A DNA stretch of 41,994 nucleotides from Candidatus Magasanikiibacteriota bacterium (GTDB taxonomy: Bacteria; Patescibacteriota; Patescibacteriia; Magasanikbacterales; UBA922), in the NCBI GenBank assembly GCA_035438805.1, contig DAORJA010000002.1, forward strand, positions 1-41,994. Reading direction: 5' to 3'. The notes under the pieces were generated by a model. The model ran no database searches, was not told where the DNA came from, and saw only the letters and a list, made by a program, of their open reading frames with translations. The first letter of the stretch is position 1. Each line of letters begins with the position of its first letter. This document shows, piece by piece, positions 3,275 through 40,128 of the stretch. A program made the translations under genes and the position numbers.

Positions 3275-3958
3275 ATGTTTAGACTTCATGCGGACAATGT
3301 ACTTGTTCGGATGAATGATAGAGATGCAGAAAAAATAAAGGATTTTTTACATGTCTCGTTTTTCATCCTAATTCAAGTTCTGGTCATCACGGAATACATT
3401 TTTAGTCCAAAAAAAGGATTGGATATCTTTTGGTTTTGCAATCATGTGTCAATTATATACGCATATGCGCTCTATACGCATCGTCCTCAGATGGTCGTCG
3501 GGGTTATGCAGGTAGGGATCTTTGTTCAGATCGTATGGCTTATCAGCTTTACGAGCCATATCATGGGTATTGGAAATATGGACACTACTGCATACATGTT
3601 CGAAGGATCCTTTGATTATGCAAAAATGATCACTCTTATCGTCCACATACTCCTTCCTACCAGTATAATCTGGCTGTTACGAAAAAAGCGGCCTAGACTT
3701 ATATCTTTGCTATATTCAGCAGTTTATTGTTGTTTTCTCTATGTTACCGCACATCTATTTACCCCTAGAGAGGAAAATATTAATTGCGTGTTTAATCCTT
3801 GTACAGTATTTGTACCGAAGTCGGGATATACGGTGCTATGGCCTTTCTATGCCGGGATTATGGTGTGTATAAACCATGGAATATATCGCTTGTCCTTCAG
3901 GTTATTTGCTAGAAAACCTGAAAAAGCGAGTGTGTTATATCTGGTACCAAGCAAGTAA
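3275..3958 (+). CDS. hypothetical integral membrane protein
   Basis: 227-aa ORF with ATG start and multiple hydrophobic helices. Same strand as the isoprenoid genes. Confidence 0.55.
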   Translation: MFRLHADNVLVRMNDRDAEKIKDFLHVSFFILIQVLVITEYIFSPKKGLDIFWFCNHVSIIYAYALYTHRPQMVVGVMQVGIFVQIVWLISFTSHIMGIGNMDTTAYMFEGSFDYAKMITLIVHILLPTSIIWLLRKKRPRLISLLYSAVYCCFLYVTAHLFTPREENINCVFNPCTVFVPKSGYTVLWPFYAGIMVCINHGIYRLSFRLFARKPEKASVLYLVPSK

Positions 3959-4030
3959 TCCACAATTTGAACCAAAAAAGTGTCCAAAAAGGCGTTGTGT
4001 TTTTTTATATAACTGAGTACAATAGGCGTC

Positions 4031-5944: not shown

Positions 5945-6538
5945 TCAGGAACGAGCATAGCGGCTGAGCTGATGTTCCATGTTTTGCCGGGCATGGAAGA
6001 GTCGGCTCATTACCGTTCCAATCGGACACCCAAGTGTGAGAGCGATTTCTTCGTAAGTCATGCCATGGAGTTCTCGCATCTCGAACACCATTCGGTGTTT
6101 AGGAGACAGGGTCTTCAGTGCGGCTGCCATGTGAGTGTTACGTTCGTGGTGCAAGGTCACCTCCTCCGGAGAGGGAATGTCTGCATGCATACGAATGTAA
6201 CCTTTCGCTTCAACATGTGCCGCAGAGTCCACGTACTCGGTCAATGCCGCTCGCTTCTCCTTGCGAATGAGGTCGATACACGTGTTCTTCGTGAGCATCC
6301 ATAGCCAGGTGGAAAACTTCGATTTTTCATCAAACGTTTCCAGGTGGGTGAGAACTTTCACGAAGACATCATGCACGATGTCTTTTACTGTTTCGAGATT
6401 GCGAATCATGGGATACGCAATCTTCAAGACCAGTCCGCGGTATCTCTGGTAGAGCTCTCGGAACGCTCGGCGGTCGCCCTCTTTGCAGAGTTTGATGAGG
6501 TCTCTTTCGTCAGTTGTCGTAGGCTTGTCTTTTTTCAA
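5945..6538 (-). CDS. ECF-type sigma-70 family RNA polymerase sigma factor (GC-rich, orphan)
   Basis: Region 2 (FRELYQRYRGLVLKIAYPMIRNLETVKDIVHDVFVKV...FSTWLWMLTKNTCIDLIRK) and region 4 (LSPKHRMVFEMRELHGMTYEEIALTLGCPIGTVMSRLFHAR). A TTG at 6538 is preceded by GGAGG (6545-6549) at a 6-nt spacing. The longer track start at 6619 lies inside the predicted -35 box. Confidence 0.8.
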   Translation of the reverse strand: MKKDKPTTTDERDLIKLCKEGDRRAFRELYQRYRGLVLKIAYPMIRNLETVKDIVHDVFVKVLTHLETFDEKSKFSTWLWMLTKNTCIDLIRKEKRAALTEYVDSAAHVEAKGYIRMHADIPSPEEVTLHHERNTHMAAALKTLSPKHRMVFEMRELHGMTYEEIALTLGCPIGTVMSRLFHARQNMEHQLSRYARS

Positions 6539-6590
6539 GGTGCACCTCCGTAATGTCGCTCTAGCTCCCTCAATAGGCACATTGTATCTA

Positions 6591-6619
6591 AACATAGCAA
6601 TAGTACAAAAAATCGTCAA
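6591..6619 (-). promoter_or_regulatory. sigma-70-type promoter for the GC-rich sigma gene
   Basis: Minus strand: TTGACG (6619-6614), 17 nt, TATGTT (6596-6591). Confidence 0.45.
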
Positions 6620-7069: not shown

Positions 7070-7097
7070 AAAACTAGCCTTACCTAAGGCTAGTTTT
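7070..7097 (+). terminator. Rho-independent terminator
   Basis: AAAACTAGCCT-tacctа-like loop-AGGCTAGTTTT: an 11-bp stem ending in a T-run. Confidence 0.6.
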
Positions 7098-7168
7098 AAT
7101 TACGTAACGCGATGTGAAATAAAGTATATGATATAGTTGTAGTATAGGTAGCTCCTGAATTTCATTTT

Positions 7169-7723
7169 ATGGATCCACTCCGAACGGATGAGGAACTGGC
7201 ATTGGATGTACAGCAAGGAAATAGCGAAGCCTTTAGCATGTTATTCAATCGGTATGAACAAAAAATGCTTCGATATGGCAAGCGGTTTTTGTATACCTAT
7301 GAAGATTTGGAAGACGCAGTTCAGGAAGTGTTTATTAAAGCATATAAAAATGTTCAAAGTTTTAATACGACTAAAAAATTTTCGACCTGGCTCTACCGTA
7401 TTGCGCACAATACATTTATCAATGTAATCAAAAAGAATGGGAGAGAACCTGTATCATTTTTCGACTTTGATACCTTGGTGAAAATTCCATCCAAAACTAC
7501 AGACACTCTTGAAGATGATTTTTTGAAAGCACAGGATTCTGAGTCATTAGCTGGTATAATGAAAAAGCTTTCTCCGAAATATCGTGAAGCATTGGTACTA
7601 TTTTATTTTGAAGAATTGGAGTATAAAGAAATAGCAGAGGTCCTGAAAATACCAACTTCTACAGTAGGAGTCAGAATCACAAGAGGCAGAGCAATGCTCA
7701 AAAAAATGATTTCTAATACATAA
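7169..7723 (+). CDS. ECF-type sigma-70 family sigma factor
   Basis: Region 2 (AFSMLFNRYEQKMLRYGKRFL...DAVQEVFIKAYKN...FSTWLYRIAHNTFINVIKK) and region 4 (LSPKYREALVLFYFEELEYKEIAEVLKIPTSTVGVRITRGR). Confidence 0.85.
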   Translation: MDPLRTDEELALDVQQGNSEAFSMLFNRYEQKMLRYGKRFLYTYEDLEDAVQEVFIKAYKNVQSFNTTKKFSTWLYRIAHNTFINVIKKNGREPVSFFDFDTLVKIPSKTTDTLEDDFLKAQDSESLAGIMKKLSPKYREALVLFYFEELEYKEIAEVLKIPTSTVGVRITRGRAMLKKMISNT

Positions 7724-10433: not shown

Positions 10434-11000
10434 ATGCCTTTAGGTTTTTTTGAGGACAAAATGGTGCAGGCCCAACAAGGGGACCGTAATGCTTTTGGTG
10501 AAGTCTATGATGAGTTTGTAAAAAAACTCTACGATTATGCTTTTTTTCGCGTAAAGGATAAACAAACAGCAGAAGATATCGTAGCGGACACATTTATAAA
10601 AGCGCTTGAACATATAAGCTCATTTGACCCGAACAAAGGCTCCGCTGCATCATGGCTTTATCGAATAGCAAGAAATACCTTGGTTGATCAATATAGATCA
10701 CATAAAAAAACTACAGCATTTCCTGAAGATTTTGATGTTGCAGACACTGCAGATTTAAAAACCCACATAGAAAATAGAGATATGCTGAGGAACGTAGAAA
10801 CTGCATTGGAGAAATTATCAGAGCGTGAACGTGAAATTATTATACTTCGAGTATGGGATGAACTTTCATACAAAGAGATTTCAGAAGTATTGGGAAAAAG
10901 TGAAGCAAGTTTGAAAATGGCTGCATCACGGGCATTGAAAGCATTGCGTACACAATTGCCTGTCGCACTCTACATTGCTCTGTTACTCCAGATGAAGTAG
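10434..11000 (+). CDS. ECF-type sigma-70 family sigma factor
   Basis: NAFGEVYDEFVKKLYDYAFFRV...DIVADTFIKALEH...AASWLYRIARNTLVDQYR, and LSEREREIIILRVWDELSYKEISEVLGKSEASLKMAASRALKAL. Confidence 0.85.
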   Translation: MPLGFFEDKMVQAQQGDRNAFGEVYDEFVKKLYDYAFFRVKDKQTAEDIVADTFIKALEHISSFDPNKGSAASWLYRIARNTLVDQYRSHKKTTAFPEDFDVADTADLKTHIENRDMLRNVETALEKLSEREREIIILRVWDELSYKEISEVLGKSEASLKMAASRALKALRTQLPVALYIALLLQMK

Positions 11001-18445: not shown

Positions 18446-20329
18446 ATGTCTGTCGACAAAAAAATTCTTGCACAAACCTTTGCACAATCGTGTCGTGCGT
18501 CAATTTTGGAAATGACTGCTCATGCGGGCAGTGGTCATCCAGGCGGATCACTCTCATCAATTGATTATCTTTCAGTACTCTATACTTCAATAATTTCACA
18601 AACTGGTGAACCAGTATTTATTTCAAATGGACATATTTCACCGGCAGTATATTCGGTATTAGCTGAAATGGGCTGGGTTTCAAAAAAAGAAATGATTGAG
18701 GGATTTAGAAAATGTGGTTCAAAATTTGAAGGGCATGTGACACGCCATGTGCCAGGTGTGTGGTATGGGACGGGACCTCTCGCAATCGGACTTTCAGTCG
18801 CGTGTGGGACTGCTCTTGGGTATAAAATAAAAAAACTCAAACAAAGAGTATACGCAGTGATTGGTGATGGGGAAGGAAATGAAGGGCAGATTTACGAAGC
18901 CATGAATTTTGCGCATAAATACAAACTAGACAACTTGATTGTTATGATGGATTATAATCATGTTCAGTTGTCAGACGCTACTGAGCGTATCATGCCATAT
19001 AATCCTGTAGAAATTTTTAAAGCTGGTGGATGGAATGTGCTTGAAATTGATGGACATAATTATGATGATATTTTTGAAGCATTAGAAATTGCCAAGAATC
19101 AAAATGGACATCCGACGTTTATTTGTGCAAGTACCATCATGGGCAAAGGAGTAGATTTTATGGAAGCTGACGGAGCTGACTATAAAGCTACGTGGCACGG
19201 GAAGGCTCCAAGCAAAGAACAAATAATTGAAGCTGTAGCAGCGCTTAGTATAAATCCAGACGAAGAAAAAATGCTAAAGAAATTTAGAAAAAGTATTCTT
19301 ATCAAGCCACCAGTGTGGAAAGATACAGAATTTGGAGCAGCTGTTAAAATAAAATCAGGAAAAGTAAAATTGTATGCAGTGGATACTCTTACTGATTGTC
19401 GAAGTGCATATGGTGTGGCTCTTGTTGATCTTGCAAAGTTGAATAAAAATATTGTGGCACTCACTGCAGATCTCGGAGGATCAGTAAAAACTGATGGAGT
19501 ACAAAAAACATATCCTAATCGTCATATTGAGTGTGGAGTTGCAGAGCAGCTCATGGTCTCAGCCTCAGCGGGGCTTGAAATAGCGGGCTTTGTGCCGTTC
19601 TGCTCTACATTTGGGGCATTTATGACAAGCCGTGCAAAAGATCAAGCTCGGGTAAATGATATTAATGAAACGAATGTAAAAATGGTTGCAACTCACTGTG
19701 GACTCTCTGTCGGAGAAGATGGGCCAACGCATCAGGCAATTGATGATTCTTCTTCAGTCGTAGGATTTTTCAATACTATGCAATTGGAACCTGCTGACCC
19801 GAATCATTGCGATAGGCTCGTTCGTTTCGCCGCAACACACCAAGGTAATGTGTATATGCGTATGGGAAGACATAAAATCCCAGTACTCACTACTGGATCA
19901 GGAAAACCTTTTTATAATGAAAAGTACGTGTATACCTATGGTAAGACTGATGTTTTACGCAAGGGTGATTCCCTGACGATTGTTGCAATGGGCGGAGTAG
20001 TAGTTGAAGCACTTCACGCATGGGAACAATTAAAGTCAGGCGGAGTTTCAGTAGAAGTGATTATTGCAAGTTCAATCAAAGCTTTTGATGAAACGGTGTT
20101 TGAATCAATCAAAAAAACTGGCATGGTAATAACGGTTGAAGATCATAATCCATATGCAGGGCTCGGTGGAATGCTTGCACGAGAATGTGCTAGTCGAGGA
20201 ATAGTGTATCAAAAGTATGAAATGCTTGGTGTGAGAGAATACCAGTTATCAGGTACTGCAGAAGAGCTTTATCATGCAGCCGGAATTGATACTGGAGCTA
20301 TTGTGGCAAAAGTAAAGGCTATGCTATAA
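18446..20329 (+). CDS. tkt: transketolase
   Basis: GSGHPGGSLS, the GDGEGNEGQIYEA TPP-binding motif, a pyrimidine-binding domain and a C-terminal domain. 627 aa. Confidence 0.9.
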   Translation: MSVDKKILAQTFAQSCRASILEMTAHAGSGHPGGSLSSIDYLSVLYTSIISQTGEPVFISNGHISPAVYSVLAEMGWVSKKEMIEGFRKCGSKFEGHVTRHVPGVWYGTGPLAIGLSVACGTALGYKIKKLKQRVYAVIGDGEGNEGQIYEAMNFAHKYKLDNLIVMMDYNHVQLSDATERIMPYNPVEIFKAGGWNVLEIDGHNYDDIFEALEIAKNQNGHPTFICASTIMGKGVDFMEADGADYKATWHGKAPSKEQIIEAVAALSINPDEEKMLKKFRKSILIKPPVWKDTEFGAAVKIKSGKVKLYAVDTLTDCRSAYGVALVDLAKLNKNIVALTADLGGSVKTDGVQKTYPNRHIECGVAEQLMVSASAGLEIAGFVPFCSTFGAFMTSRAKDQARVNDINETNVKMVATHCGLSVGEDGPTHQAIDDSSSVVGFFNTMQLEPADPNHCDRLVRFAATHQGNVYMRMGRHKIPVLTTGSGKPFYNEKYVYTYGKTDVLRKGDSLTIVAMGGVVVEALHAWEQLKSGGVSVEVIIASSIKAFDETVFESIKKTGMVITVEDHNPYAGLGGMLARECASRGIVYQKYEMLGVREYQLSGTAEELYHAAGIDTGAIVAKVKAML

Positions 20330-20353
20330 TCAACTGCGGTGTAATTAATCATT

Positions 20354-20929
20354 TTGTATATACCTAACATAGTGATTACAATTCCCACGTTAAACGAATG
20401 GAAAGAGGTCAGAGCTCTAAGGCTTCAAGCTCTCAAAAATGAACCTCATGCATTTAAGAATGGTTATCACGAAGAAATACAATTGACTGAGAATGAATGG
20501 AAAAAGAAAATTTATAATTCATCCCGAAATAATCGGGATGAATTTTTTATTATAGCAAAAGTAGATAATCGAATTGTAGGAATGGTGGGTGCTGACTTGA
20601 GAGACGAGAAGACATGGTGTCTTAAATCAGTGTTTGTTGCATACGAGTATAGGGGACAGGGGATTGGAACACGACTTCTTGAGGAAGTAATAGAAAAGCT
20701 TGAAAGAAATTATCATGCACGCATGATCGAGCTCACGGTAAACATACTGCAAATAGCGGCAATTCGAGTGTATACTAAGTGTGGATTTGTGGTGAGGGAG
20801 ATTATGGAAAATCAAGAATCAGGCGATGGAAAAAAATATACTAAGTTTAATATGTATCGGAATTTTTGTCCGATTACCATGCAGGGACATGTAAATGATT
20901 TTGAAAAAACATTGCTTATCCACAGATAA
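20354..20929 (+). CDS. GNAT family N-acetyltransferase
   Basis: Acetyl-CoA motif A VAYEYRGQGIGTRLLEEV. TTG start in the track, so the exact start is uncertain. Confidence 0.75.
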   Translation: MYIPNIVITIPTLNEWKEVRALRLQALKNEPHAFKNGYHEEIQLTENEWKKKIYNSSRNNRDEFFIIAKVDNRIVGMVGADLRDEKTWCLKSVFVAYEYRGQGIGTRLLEEVIEKLERNYHARMIELTVNILQIAAIRVYTKCGFVVREIMENQESGDGKKYTKFNMYRNFCPITMQGHVNDFEKTLLIHR

Positions 20930-20941
20930 TATATAATTTAT

Positions 20942-20969
20942 TTGACGTGAAATCCTGCCATGGTATATT
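20942..20969 (+). promoter_or_regulatory. sigma-70-type promoter with extended -10, upstream of the GC-rich non-coding island
   Basis: TTGACG (20942-20947), 16 nt, then TGgTATATT (-10 at 20964-20969). Confidence 0.4.
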
Positions 20970-21052
20970 AAACATAGATTAAAATACAAAACAGTTTCAC
21001 CCCAGCATCTATTCTGTAGAACTTGTAGTATAGATGGTGCTGTGAATGTTTA

Positions 21053-21400
21053 GGGGGCAAAACAATCGCTCGCACCGACATGTGCCATTTCCCGTTCCCG
21101 TTTCCTTTTCGCTCCTTCCGTGCCCCTGGCTATCTTTCCCTCAACCTGGCCTGTTGTAGGCCCTCAACTGTTGCGACTCTCGTCGTCTTAGTCCTTCGAG
21201 GCCCTTCTGGCCTCGCTCTGAGAAACGCACCGCCTATCGTGCACAAAAGCGGTGTGAGCGCAGTCAGTTCACGTAGTCGAGAGACAAGAAGAAAAGGGGT
21301 CCATGACCCCATCCTAGCCAGCAGACCTTCGGGTCGACCAAGTTCCTTCGTCCCATGAGGGGCGGCAATCACACGTACCAACGTGTGTGCGCCGCCCCTC
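21053..21400 (+). ncRNA. candidate structured non-coding RNA of unknown class (strand tentative)
   Basis: About 57% GC in an AT-rich genome. Only mutually antisense, RBS-less ORFs are present. Local hairpins: GGCCT/AGGCC 21148-21162, GAGGCC/GGCCTC 21198-21214, CACCGC/GCGGTG 21228-21254, GGGGTC/GACCCC 21296-21310, GACC-UUCG-GGUC 21324-21335 and a 44-nt terminal hairpin at 21357-21400. Plus strand is favoured only by the upstream promoter. Confidence 0.4.
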
Positions 21401-24497: not shown

Positions 24498-24575
24498 GAT
24501 TAGAAAGAACAGAATTAAGAAATACCATAAAATTTTGTAAAAGTCAAAGGAGGAGAGTTCGACCCCCATTTGACC

Positions 24576-24610
24576 TTAACAAAAATCTCCGCTTGGATAA
24601 GCGAAGATTT
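24576..24610 (-). terminator. Rho-independent terminator of tRNA-Asn
   Basis: Minus-strand RNA forms AAAUCUUCGCUU-aucc-AAGCGGAGAUUU (12 bp including one G.U) followed by UUUUUG. On the plus strand the same pair is a C.A mismatch. Confidence 0.7.
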
Positions 24611-24616
24611 TAGGTG

Positions 24617-24986
24617 CTCGGCGGGCGGGGCTCGAACCCGCGACCCACTGGTTACAGTATCCTCTCTCTTTCAAGAGAGACTGGACTATGTCATCACCCA
24701 TGCCATACCTGGCAGAATAAATTCTCCAAGAGCCTGGGGGTGCGGAGCGCTTCCCGCCCCGACGATGTCGGGGAAGTACTCCCATAAAGGGATAGTCTCT
24801 GAACCTTCCTAATCCATTACTAATTCCAGTAAAACTGGAGTATCGGACTAGGCTTGGCTGCAGGTTACCCTATGAAAAAATCCATAGTAGCGGTTTCCTG
24901 CAATTCACTCCGTTGGCATCCTGACATTACTATCAGGAGCTGCTAATTTTTAACAGCCAGTTGCTCTACCGCTGAGCTACCGCCGA
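24617..24986 (-). tRNA. tRNA-Asn(GTT) interrupted by a group I intron (exon 1 24986-24953, exon 2 24654-24617)
   Basis: The joined exons give TCGGCGG-TA-GCTC-AGCGGTA-GAGC-A-ACTGG-CTGTTAA-CCAGT-GGGTC-GCGGG-TTCGAGC-CCCGC-CCGCCGA-G. This is a 72-nt cloverleaf with all stems Watson-Crick. CCA is not encoded. Confidence 0.9.
24655..24952 (-). ncRNA. group I self-splicing intron (IC3-like), 298 nt, no ORF
   Basis: P1 pairs exon GCUGU with intron GCAGC, with a U.G pair at the 5' splice site. The intron ends in G. P7 halves are GACUAU and AUAGUC. Core tracts CCUGCAGCCAAGCC and GGAAGGUUCAGAGACUAUCCC resemble the Azoarcus and cyanobacterial tRNA introns. A P9-like UCUCUCU-UGAA-AGAGAGA hairpin is present. 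Confidence 0.8.
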
Positions 24987-25007: not shown

Positions 25008-25036
25008 AGCATACTATATAAATCGTGTTTAGTCAA
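25008..25036 (-). promoter_or_regulatory. sigma-70-type promoter of tRNA-Asn
   Basis: Minus strand: TTGACT (25036-25031), 17 nt, TATGCT (25013-25008). Lies about 20 nt upstream of the tRNA 5' end. Confidence 0.5.
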
Positions 25037-39336: not shown

Positions 39337-40128
39337 ATGGCTGAAATTCACATTCCAGGATTAGCACCAGAAGTATTGTTCCATGTGGGACCGGTTCCGG
39401 TTACCAATACTATTGTGAATGTGTGGATTGCACTGATAATTTTTCTCATCATGGGAATTGCGATCAAGCGCAAAATTGCCATGCGACCAGGAAAATTCCA
39501 AAATGGATTTGAATATATTTTAGAACTCTTGCTCCCATATTTTGACCAAGTAACTGGAGATCGAAAAAAGACTATTCGCTTTTTGCCAATTGTCGGAACG
39601 ATCTTCTTTTTTATTTTACTATCAAATTGGTTGGGCCTTCTTCCAGGAACAGGAAGTATTACAGTAGGACACAACATGCTACTTCGTCCAGCGAACACAG
39701 ATTTGAATCTCACCGTTGTCATGGCTCTCGTGTCAGTTATAGCTTCACACGTATTTGCGTTTATCAGTATTGGAGTGTTCACACACCTAGGAAAATTCGT
39801 ACAATTCGGTAATGTAATTCGAAGCATCAAGAAAGGTCCAATGGCAATATTCTCAGCGTTGATTGAGTTCGCTGTAGGATTACTCGAAATCGTGAGTGAA
39901 ATGGCAAAAATATTGTCTCTCTCACTTCGTTTATTTGGAAACATTTTTGCAGGTGAAGTATTGATTTCAGTAATGTCAGCGCTTGTTGCAGCGCTCGTAC
40001 CAACTCCATTCATGTTGCTTGAATTATTGGTTGGTCTTATCCAGGCTGCAGTATTTGCGATGCTGACGCTTGTATATATGACTGTAGCATCATCTGCTCC
40101 ACACGGTGCAGAAGAGGGACACCACTAG
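39337..40128 (+). CDS. atpB: F0F1 ATP synthase subunit a
   Basis: LSLSLRLFGNIFAGE motif with the essential Arg. 5-6 TM helices. Confidence 0.9.
   Translation: MAEIHIPGLAPEVLFHVGPVPVTNTIVNVWIALIIFLIMGIAIKRKIAMRPGKFQNGFEYILELLLPYFDQVTGDRKKTIRFLPIVGTIFFFILLSNWLGLLPGTGSITVGHNMLLRPANTDLNLTVVMALVSVIASHVFAFISIGVFTHLGKFVQFGNVIRSIKKGPMAIFSALIEFAVGLLEIVSEMAKILSLSLRLFGNIFAGEVLISVMSALVAALVPTPFMLLELLVGLIQAAVFAMLTLVYMTVASSAPHGAEEGHH

Follow-up and report, generated by a model that had tools for sequence, protein, structure and literature searches.

On the minus strand of contig DAORJA010000002.1, a stretch of 41,994 nucleotides that we call the window, we identified a tRNA-Asn(GUU) gene whose anticodon loop is interrupted by a group I intron without an open reading frame (ORF). 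The reading we favor, with a probability of roughly 90%, is that this is a tRNA-Asn gene of a bacterium of the Candidate Phyla Radiation (CPR, Patescibacteria) with kinship to Magasanikbacteria, that it is split between tRNA positions 35 and 36 by an intron of the Asn.4Ug type, that the intron is probably a descendant of a mobile element and carries no endonuclease, and that it would be spliced by the steps set out below. An earlier note, made from the sequence alone, had proposed the split gene and its ORF-less intron, and this central claim was borne out by a match to the Rfam group I model, the cloverleaf of the joined exons, the U.G pair and terminal G (omega-G) at the splice sites, the covarying helices P1 to P9, and sequence constraint between related genomes.

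The split tRNA-Asn gene and its intron

The 5' exon (24986-24953, minus strand; 34 nt, tRNA positions 1-35) ends in ...CUGU, with its last base (U-1) at 24953, and the 3' exon (24654-24617, minus strand; 38 nt, positions 36-73) starts with UAACC and has the discriminator G as its last base. When joined, TCGGCGGTAGCTCAGCGGTAGAGCAACTGGCTGT and TAACCAGTGGGTCGCGGGTTCGAGCCCCGCCCGCCGAG make a 72-nt sequence that ARAGORN called as tRNA-Asn(gtt) with a regular cloverleaf, an anticodon loop CUGUUAA, a U1-A72 pair and discriminator G73; the exon coordinates, tRNA length and loop given in the earlier note were exact. The predicted spliced junction reads GGCUGU/UAACCAGU, and CCA is not encoded at the 3' end. 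Bacterial tRNA-Asn is marked at its acceptor end by a U1-A72 pair together with a G73 discriminator. The window gene has an acceptor end of this type (UCGGCGG...CCGCCGA-G), and all 46 tRNAs of the family described below begin with U and end in A-G. A default ARAGORN run over the whole 42-kb window reported zero tRNAs, as expected since the tRNA-Asn gene is split, and this gene is the only tRNA gene of the window.

An alternative identity for the gene, tRNA-Thr(UGU), which would require shifting the intron by 2 nt (or 6 nt), draws on the intron mode of ARAGORN (-i), which labels the unspliced locus tRNA-Thr(tgt), and on the many relatives in which a U-1 and a terminal G are satisfied in both registers. 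We give this identity almost no credence: in the window the register shifted by 2 nt would leave C as the last base of the intron, the -1 U of the Thr register would stand opposite A with no U.G wobble with the guide GCAGC, and U1-A72 with G73 is the pattern of tRNA-Asn. Exon 1 also matches annotated phage tRNA-Asn genes, which speaks against Thr (the blastn search against phages otherwise returned only short matches to the intron core or the exons), and CUGU/...G/UAA is the sole register common to all 46 family members, every one of which has the exon end CUGU and an omega-G at the Asn-compatible site. Intron mode found the split gene while misplacing its intron, giving Thr-tgt here and Gln, Arg, Asp, Thr and others at other loci; we re-derived the splice sites with the U-1/omega-G rule in place of those it reported. 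In the tRNA-Asn register the intron is inserted after nucleotide 4 of the anticodon loop, between tRNA positions 35 and 36.

The intron itself is 298 nt long (24952-24655, minus strand; intron nucleotide i is window position 24953 - i) and matched Rfam RF00028 (Intron_gpI) over the full model (1-253) with 85.7 bits and an E-value of 1.3e-20. This match, the single Rfam match of the window, lies above the gathering score of 50, as the earlier note had anticipated. The intron-final G that the note described is present at 24655 as the omega-G, both core tracts that it quoted are found in the intron, and no intron ORF is longer than 43 aa, in keeping with its description of the intron as ORF-less. 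All 83 modelled pairs (P1, P2, P3, P4, P5, P6/6a/6b, P7, P7.1, P7.2, P8 and P9) are standard in the window sequence, and all helices of the P3-P8/P4-P6 core, on whose formation the proposal depended, form in the window.

Covariation, orthologs and splicing

We scanned species-representative genomes with a core pattern, GCAGCCAAG-N25-55-GGTTCAGAGACTA, and recovered at least 120 loci. These genomes hold at least 45 further tRNA-Asn(GUU) genes split at CUGU/...G/UAA, mostly in Patescibacteria (CPR). The 33 shorter tRNA-Asn introns, the window's included, were aligned with MAFFT; distal P5, P6b and P7.2, which MAFFT could not align across the family, were left out of the refined pair count. Across the 33-intron alignment 92.6% of cells held a standard pair, compared with 74.6% in shuffled alignments and 33-45% when the 3' partners were slid along the sequence. 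The covariation score was 0.478, versus 0.14 (shuffled) and 0.07-0.11 (slid), and none of 500 shuffles reached the observed values.

At the 5' splice site, P1 (24939-24957, minus strand, as are all helices that follow) is formed between the internal guide UUAGCAGC and exon GCUGU followed by intron UAA; GCAGC, intron nucleotides 10-14, pairs with the exon GCUGU and sets up the splice-site wobble U-1.G10, which is the P1 that the earlier note had described, beginning 10 nt into the intron. The U.G pair at the splice site occurs in all 33 sequences, and the pair just inside it covaries (AU 12, GC 9, CG 8, GU 2, UA 2, unpaired 0). Read off the sequence, UUA of the guide could also form a potential P10 of 3 bp with UAA, the first three bases of the 3' exon. 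The P2 hairpin (24920-24937), closed by the GNRA loop GUAA, is paired in 91.7% of cells and has compensatory changes in 7/7 pairs; the 5' strand of P3 (24906-24912) and its 3' strand (24743-24749) are paired in 97.4% of cells in the family pair count, with compensatory changes at 4/7 pairs. Within the P4-P5-P6/P6a/P6b domain (24803-24902), which contains the tract CCUGCAGCCAAGCC, pairing is 100% for P4, 98.5% for the base of P5 and 84.8% for P6a, and compensatory changes are seen in 2/6 P4 pairs and 8/8 P6a pairs. P7 joins G(A)GACUA with its bulged A (24793-24799) to UAGUCC (24683-24688), with the GACUA/UAGUC of the P7 halves given in the earlier note; it is 100% paired and invariant, as is P6 proper, and its 3' strand is invariant in 33/33 sequences although it lies outside the search pattern. 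P8 (24696-24741), with a base ACCC/GGGU and a variable distal part, is paired in 96.2% of cells, and 3 of its 4 pairs covary (e.g., CG 15 / UA 15). Between P7 and the 3' strand of P3 lie two further hairpins, P7.1 (24792-24780), paired in 91.7% of cells in the 15 members that have it, and P7.2 (24776-24750); about half of the family has no P7.1 hairpin as aligned.

The UC/GA hairpin that the note had placed before the 3' splice site is present as P9 (24661-24680), its register excepted. The proposed UGAA loop was dropped since this register is paired in 45% of family cells, versus 78.6% for a register one nucleotide off, which closes on a GAAA tetraloop, is favored by family covariation and has covariation at 7/8 pairs.

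Comparison with close relatives independently points in the same direction. The nearest representative genome, L079, is syntenic with the window (amino acid identities of 88% for def, 74% for priA, 88% for a LigB-like protein and 85% for a Peptidase S11 protein), and between the two the intron is 94.3% identical at the nucleotide level, compared with 81.5% for the def coding sequence, 58% for the def-tRNA spacer and 49% for the 250 nt downstream of the tRNA. All 5 of the differences at paired intron positions preserve pairing, and P6a shows one double change, from U-A to C-G. A more distant relative, L307 (GCA_002293825.1; methionyl-tRNA synthetase [MetRS] 76% identical), has a homologous tRNA-Asn intron of 278 nt that scored 89 bits against RF00028, and relative to it the window has compensatory changes in P9, P7.2, the tRNA T-stem and the acceptor stem. 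Ortholog introns as a group scored 88-104 bits against RF00028. As judged from these alignments, the pattern of constraint is the signature of a functional ribozyme within a functional tRNA gene, and the intron is apparently under purifying selection. At the syntenic site the tRNA and intron are absent from L303 and L309, and in L307 they are inverted.

These comparisons bear on the possibility that the intron is a dead, decayed remnant and the split tRNA-Asn a pseudogene, with Asn decoded by an intact tRNA-Asn elsewhere in the genome. The related genome L081 does have an intact tRNA-Asn(GTT) (7072-7145, minus strand) of clearly different sequence about 3 kb from its split copy (3661-4021, minus strand), and therefore the split gene is not always the sole copy, which bears on the earlier note's conditional suggestion that splicing would be essential were this the only tRNA-Asn gene; moreover, no endonuclease ORF is left in the window intron. 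Decay is nonetheless very unlikely, as the core helices are all intact in the window, every family-invariant core nucleotide is kept, the intron is far better conserved than the flanking coding DNA and spacers, the helix changes all preserve pairing, and the exons show compensatory changes as well.

For a functional intron, we propose the following route to the mature tRNA. Transcription, probably from the gene's own promoter, would yield a precursor of ~400 nt, in which the intron folds into the P1-P9 ribozyme core, as the covariation shows. There the guide GCAGC, paired with the exon end GCUGU, presents the U.G at the 5' splice site, which would be attacked by an exogenous guanosine bound in P7, as expected from the group I mechanism. 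The omega-G (24655) would then replace the exogenous guanosine in the G-binding site and the freed 3'-OH of exon 1 would attack the 3' splice site, perhaps aided in alignment by the 3-bp P10 (UUA/UAA). Ligation would restore the loop CUGUUAA, and RNase P, 3' trimming and CCA addition would finish the tRNA. By analogy, the L2 (GUAA) and L9 (GAAA) tetraloops suggest tetraloop-receptor bracing as in small bacterial tRNA introns.

Several points weigh against this account of the gene and its splicing. The search pattern fixes the P4 3' strand, both P6 strands and the P7 5' strand, whose invariance is thus in part built in; the structure was drawn from the window sequence, which is an advantage in the slid-partner control; and the P10 is just 3 bp and is not kept across the wider family. 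The promoter is likewise equivocal. The earlier note had assigned the gene its own promoter, and a promoter-like site, TTGACT-17-TATGCT, does lie at 25008-25036 (minus strand), ~22 nt upstream of the tRNA 5' end, with 9/12 positions matching; however, this match is no better than chance, as promoter-like sites were not enriched over shuffles (3 found vs 2.3 expected). The L307 ortholog is preceded by a similar TTGACA...TATACT. Finally, our literature search found no splicing assay for any intron of the Asn.4Ug type, splicing here being predicted from sequence, and splicing may depend on a protein cofactor.

This last point can be put more strongly, as a real group I intron that is not autonomous in vivo and needs a host chaperone or a cofactor resembling an aminoacyl-tRNA synthetase, with P7.1/P7.2 acting as a protein-binding or stabilizing module. 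Some mitochondrial and phage group I introns splice with the help of proteins, and the P7.1/P7.2 insertion is kept in the P7.1-bearing clade while missing from the small self-sufficient IC3 introns. We consider such a dependence unlikely, given that the intron has the L2 GNRA and L9 GAAA tetraloops by which small bacterial tRNA introns are stabilized protein-free, that P7.1 is missing, as aligned, from about half of the family, and that the window offers no hint of a cofactor gene.

Relation to catalogued tRNA introns

The classical bacterial tRNA hosts of group I introns are tRNA-Leu(UAA), tRNA-fMet, tRNA-Ile(CAU) and tRNA-Arg(CCU), all with IC3 introns according to the database cited by Williams (doi 10.1101/2020.01.27.920355). 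In that preprint (Williams KP, bioRxiv 2020) 21 settings are catalogued, and one seed, Pam37.Asn.4Ug, is a tRNA-Asn interrupted at the same loop position as the window gene; the consensus structure (SS_cons) and the Asn.4Ug, Lys.2Ug, Phe.2Ug and Leu.1Ug seeds carry a hairpin insertion between P7 and P3'. The earlier note was right that tRNA-Asn is not among the four classical hosts, but the novelty that this implied did not stand, since Asn.4Ug was listed by Williams in 2020 and is common in genomes. Our literature search found no paper besides this preprint in which tRNA-Asn is named among the bacterial hosts of group I introns.

For comparison with these seeds, Pam37.Asn.4Ug was copied by hand from the Williams supplement, and as nhmmer searches with single sequences were too weak (6 bits or less) we used a profile of the window family instead. 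The profile matched Pam37.Asn.4Ug nearly end to end (82.9 bits, E-value 6.8e-27), and scored 63-71 bits against Phe.2Ug, Lys.2Ug and Leu.1Ug, all of which bear P7.1. Against the classical IC3 seeds it gave a partial match of 27 bits to Leu.3Ug, 3.9 bits to Ile2.5Ug (the Azoarcus type) and 2.4 bits to fMet.2Ug, and there was no match to the Arg.5Ug (classical IC3) or tmRNA intron (IA3-type) seeds. From the 82.9-bit seed match, set against 2-27 bits for IC3, we assign the window intron on sequence similarity to the already catalogued Asn.4Ug type. It shares with the Asn.4Ug seed the host tRNA, the insertion point (CUGU/...g/UAA), U-1, omega-G, core sequence and a P7-P3' hairpin, and differs in that the window sub-variant has two hairpins (UCCC..GGGA and a second stem) where the seed has a GUGAG..CCUAACAAUAAU hairpin; the window copy also has a short L1, has no P2.1-like insert and comes from a different genome. 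With Phe.2Ug, Lys.2Ug and Leu.1Ug it shares the core elements GUGAAUU(C/G), (U/G)(U/C)AGAGACUA, AGCGCC and GAUGAGAUAGUCC as well as the P7.1 insertion, whereas those introns occupy other host tRNAs and loop positions and hence have other guides.

The earlier note had called the intron "IC3-like", and this part of its description fits the intron's build, not its closest kin. Like the classical IC3 tRNA introns (those of Azoarcus tRNA-Ile(CAU), cyanobacterial and plastid tRNA-Leu(UAA), cyanobacterial tRNA-fMet and Agrobacterium tRNA-Arg(CCU)), the window intron is a small anticodon-loop ribozyme, these being mostly ORF-less, with a P1 that uses anticodon-loop bases, GNRA tetraloops on P2 and P9, no P5abc, a short P5 and a P6/P6a; the J3/4-P4, P6 and J6/7-P7 tracts are similar, and the same two-step mechanism initiated by guanosine is expected. 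It might accordingly be read as an ordinary IC3 intron and close kin of the Azoarcus tRNA-Ile and cyanobacterial tRNA-Leu introns, with which it has the core tracts GCCAAGC and GAAGGU.. AGAGACUA in common, and the IC3 Leu seed is among the better partial matches of the seeds that have no P7.1 (the IA3-type tmRNA seed giving none). We find this placement rather improbable. The window intron has the compact periphery of IC3 (P2 present, no P5abc, a P9 tetraloop), but it also has P7.1 and P7.2, which are foreign to the classical IC3 introns in Williams' alignment: just 2-3 nt separate P7 from P3' in the classical seeds, versus the two hairpins at 24792-24750 in the window. The host tRNA and the loop position (35/36) differ too, and the P7.1-bearing Asn, Phe, Lys and Leu.1 types, with profile scores of 63-83 bits, stand well above the classical types, whose scores are poor. 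Self-splicing has been demonstrated for classical IC3 introns, while the Asn.4Ug type is known from sequence.

Among the matches listed in the scan of species representatives, about 28 loci are tRNA(CAU) genes with the junctions CUCAU/...G/AA, mostly in Isosphaeraceae/Planctomycetota (e.g., L003, L008, L010, L017, L021, L023, L025, L049 and L051), and ARAGORN in intron mode mislabels these as Gln(ctg) or Arg(ccg).

Probably mobile relatives, genomic context and significance

Eight family members have longer introns, of 465-585 nt. In five of these (544-585 nt; L005:3068-3627, minus strand; L035:3539-4125, plus; L056:4120-4698, minus; L066:3934-4534, minus; and L108:3235-3835, plus) an ORF scan found that the longest frame is a sense-strand ORF of 103-116 aa. 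Four of the five ORFs were scanned for HNH domains: that of L056 matched PHROG HNH families with an E-value of 3.7e-29, that of L035 scored 26 bits against Pfam HNH (cutoff 21.4), those of L056 and L066 fell just below the Pfam HNH cutoff, and that of L005 had no Pfam match. The guide starts at nucleotide 319-333 in these five introns and in L052 and L055, which places the extra sequence in loop L1. In L052 and L055, whose introns are about as long, the longest ORFs run antisense and no HNH signature is obvious in them. As in the Synechocystis tRNA-fMet intron, which reportedly encodes I-Ssp6803I, relatives at the tRNA-Asn site thus carry an ORF of homing-endonuclease type, here an HNH protein of ~103-116 aa in L1, while the window copy has none. 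On these sequence features, the intron family was probably spread by the L1 HNH protein acting as its homing endonuclease, and the window intron is probably a descendant of such a mobile element that has no endonuclease.

A scan of metagenomes found the 31-nt junction sequence uninterrupted in 62 contigs, none of which was syntenic or near-identical to the window over its full length; these uninterrupted tRNA-Asn genes belong to unrelated organisms, and the scan turned up neither a true empty-site allele nor any sign that the intron is polymorphic for presence and absence. The core pattern GCAGCCAAG...GGTTCAGAGACTA also occurs in at least 120 viral contigs (L183-L302), including giant-virus metagenome-assembled genomes (MAGs), with almost none of the viral matches inside tRNA genes (2 doubtful calls). 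In the Prevotella phage Lak-A1 (L310; MK250015.1, 208714-210150, reverse complement), the stretch at ~560-860 has an intron core with a UAUCCC..GGGAGUA P7.1, AGCGCC and AUAGUCC. In this megaphage stretch the P4 5' strand is followed by a large A/U-rich insert. The stretch lies outside a tRNA gene, scores below the Rfam gathering threshold and probably represents a group I intron that interrupts a protein-coding gene.

With ~40% G+C, the window is an ordinary piece of a bacterial chromosome. The tRNA lies downstream of def, which has a terminator-like hairpin of its own (25149-25130), and the terminator that the earlier note had placed just 3' of the tRNA was found as an intrinsic-terminator-like hairpin with a U-run (24577-24611, minus strand; hairpin ~24611-24582, -17.3 kcal/mol, z = -3.24). 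An 80-aa ORF initiated by TTG (24570-24812, plus strand) lies antisense to the locus and covers the terminator, the 3' exon and the intron's 3' half; this ORF is presumably spurious, and gene callers may report it instead of the tRNA. In L307, a 186-aa gene is called just 3' of the split tRNA. Other window genes include priA, a LigB/Memo-like gene, a D-Ala-D-Ala carboxypeptidase, transketolase, acetolactate synthase and rsmI-metG-tatD, along with an F-type ATP synthase operon and three ECF (extracytoplasmic function) sigma factors.

The best named homologs of the window's MetRS (66-71% identity) are all from Candidatus Magasanikbacteria, and the window tRNA is nearly identical to that of L068, which is labelled Patescibacteria. 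These two similarities lead us to place the host among the CPR/Patescibacteria, near Magasanikbacteria, and to reject the label of the syntenic L079, "uncultured Gammaproteobacteria", as apparently wrong; the gene content, with an LCP-family transferase, YibE/F and a short PRK12267-type MetRS, is suggestive of a CPR host as well. Seven TPA-assembled MAGs with CPR-type tRNA-Asn introns (L079, L044, L052, L056, L081, L088 and L120) are labelled "uncultured Gammaproteobacteria bacterium", and these labels look wrong.

The ECF-type sigma factor genes (5945-6619, minus strand; 7169-7723, plus; and 10434-11000, plus) all lie within 5 kb, a notable regulatory capacity for a presumed reduced CPR genome. 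ORFs of 232 aa and 509 aa that follow two of them belong to no Pfam family and may be anti-sigma partners. In L303 (13318-17218) and L307 (13723-17345) the ATP synthase a-c-b genes are tandemly duplicated ahead of delta-alpha-gamma-beta; Pfam scans of the window cover one a-subunit gene (39337-40128), one b and delta before the window ends, a second a-c-b set not having been specifically sought. The Magasanikbacteria relative L309 has, ~7.5 kb downstream of metG, a 668-aa reverse-transcriptase (RVT_1) gene (19055-21061, plus strand) that may encode a group II intron protein or be part of a retron.

The tRNA-Asn intron described here is of a kind already catalogued in 2020 and common in CPR genomes, in at least 45 species representatives; its novelty is low, the clade having been found described in one preprint (Williams 2020), and the find leaves the known group I intron mechanism unchanged. 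Its main value is for annotation, as it reveals a hidden tRNA-Asn. Default tRNA finders miss the split tRNA-Asn, and genomes like this one will appear to have none, an apparent gap that skews both completeness checks and what is inferred about decoding in CPR bacteria. tRNAscan-SE 2.0 was not designed for group I intron detection (PMC8450103), and Lui et al. 2021 (PMC8172020), in completed genomes that are almost all CPR, describe tRNAs that carry group I introns and are hard to find.

The window intron is also a clean candidate for a first biochemical test of the tRNA-intron clade that bears P7.1/P7.2, and it adds a well-supported case of a ribozyme within a core translation component of an ultra-small bacterium. 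A wider picture, which we put forward tentatively and with more doubt than belief, is that the P7.1/P7.2 tRNA introns (Asn.4Ug, Phe.2Ug, Lys.2Ug and Leu.1Ug) may form a structurally distinct subgroup apart from IC3, that Asn.4Ug may have spread in CPR/Patescibacteria by means of L1 HNH homing endonucleases targeting tRNA-Asn, and that in reduced genomes such as this one all tRNA-Asn may come from the split gene. If this were true, the translation of every Asn codon would depend on the activity of a ribozyme.

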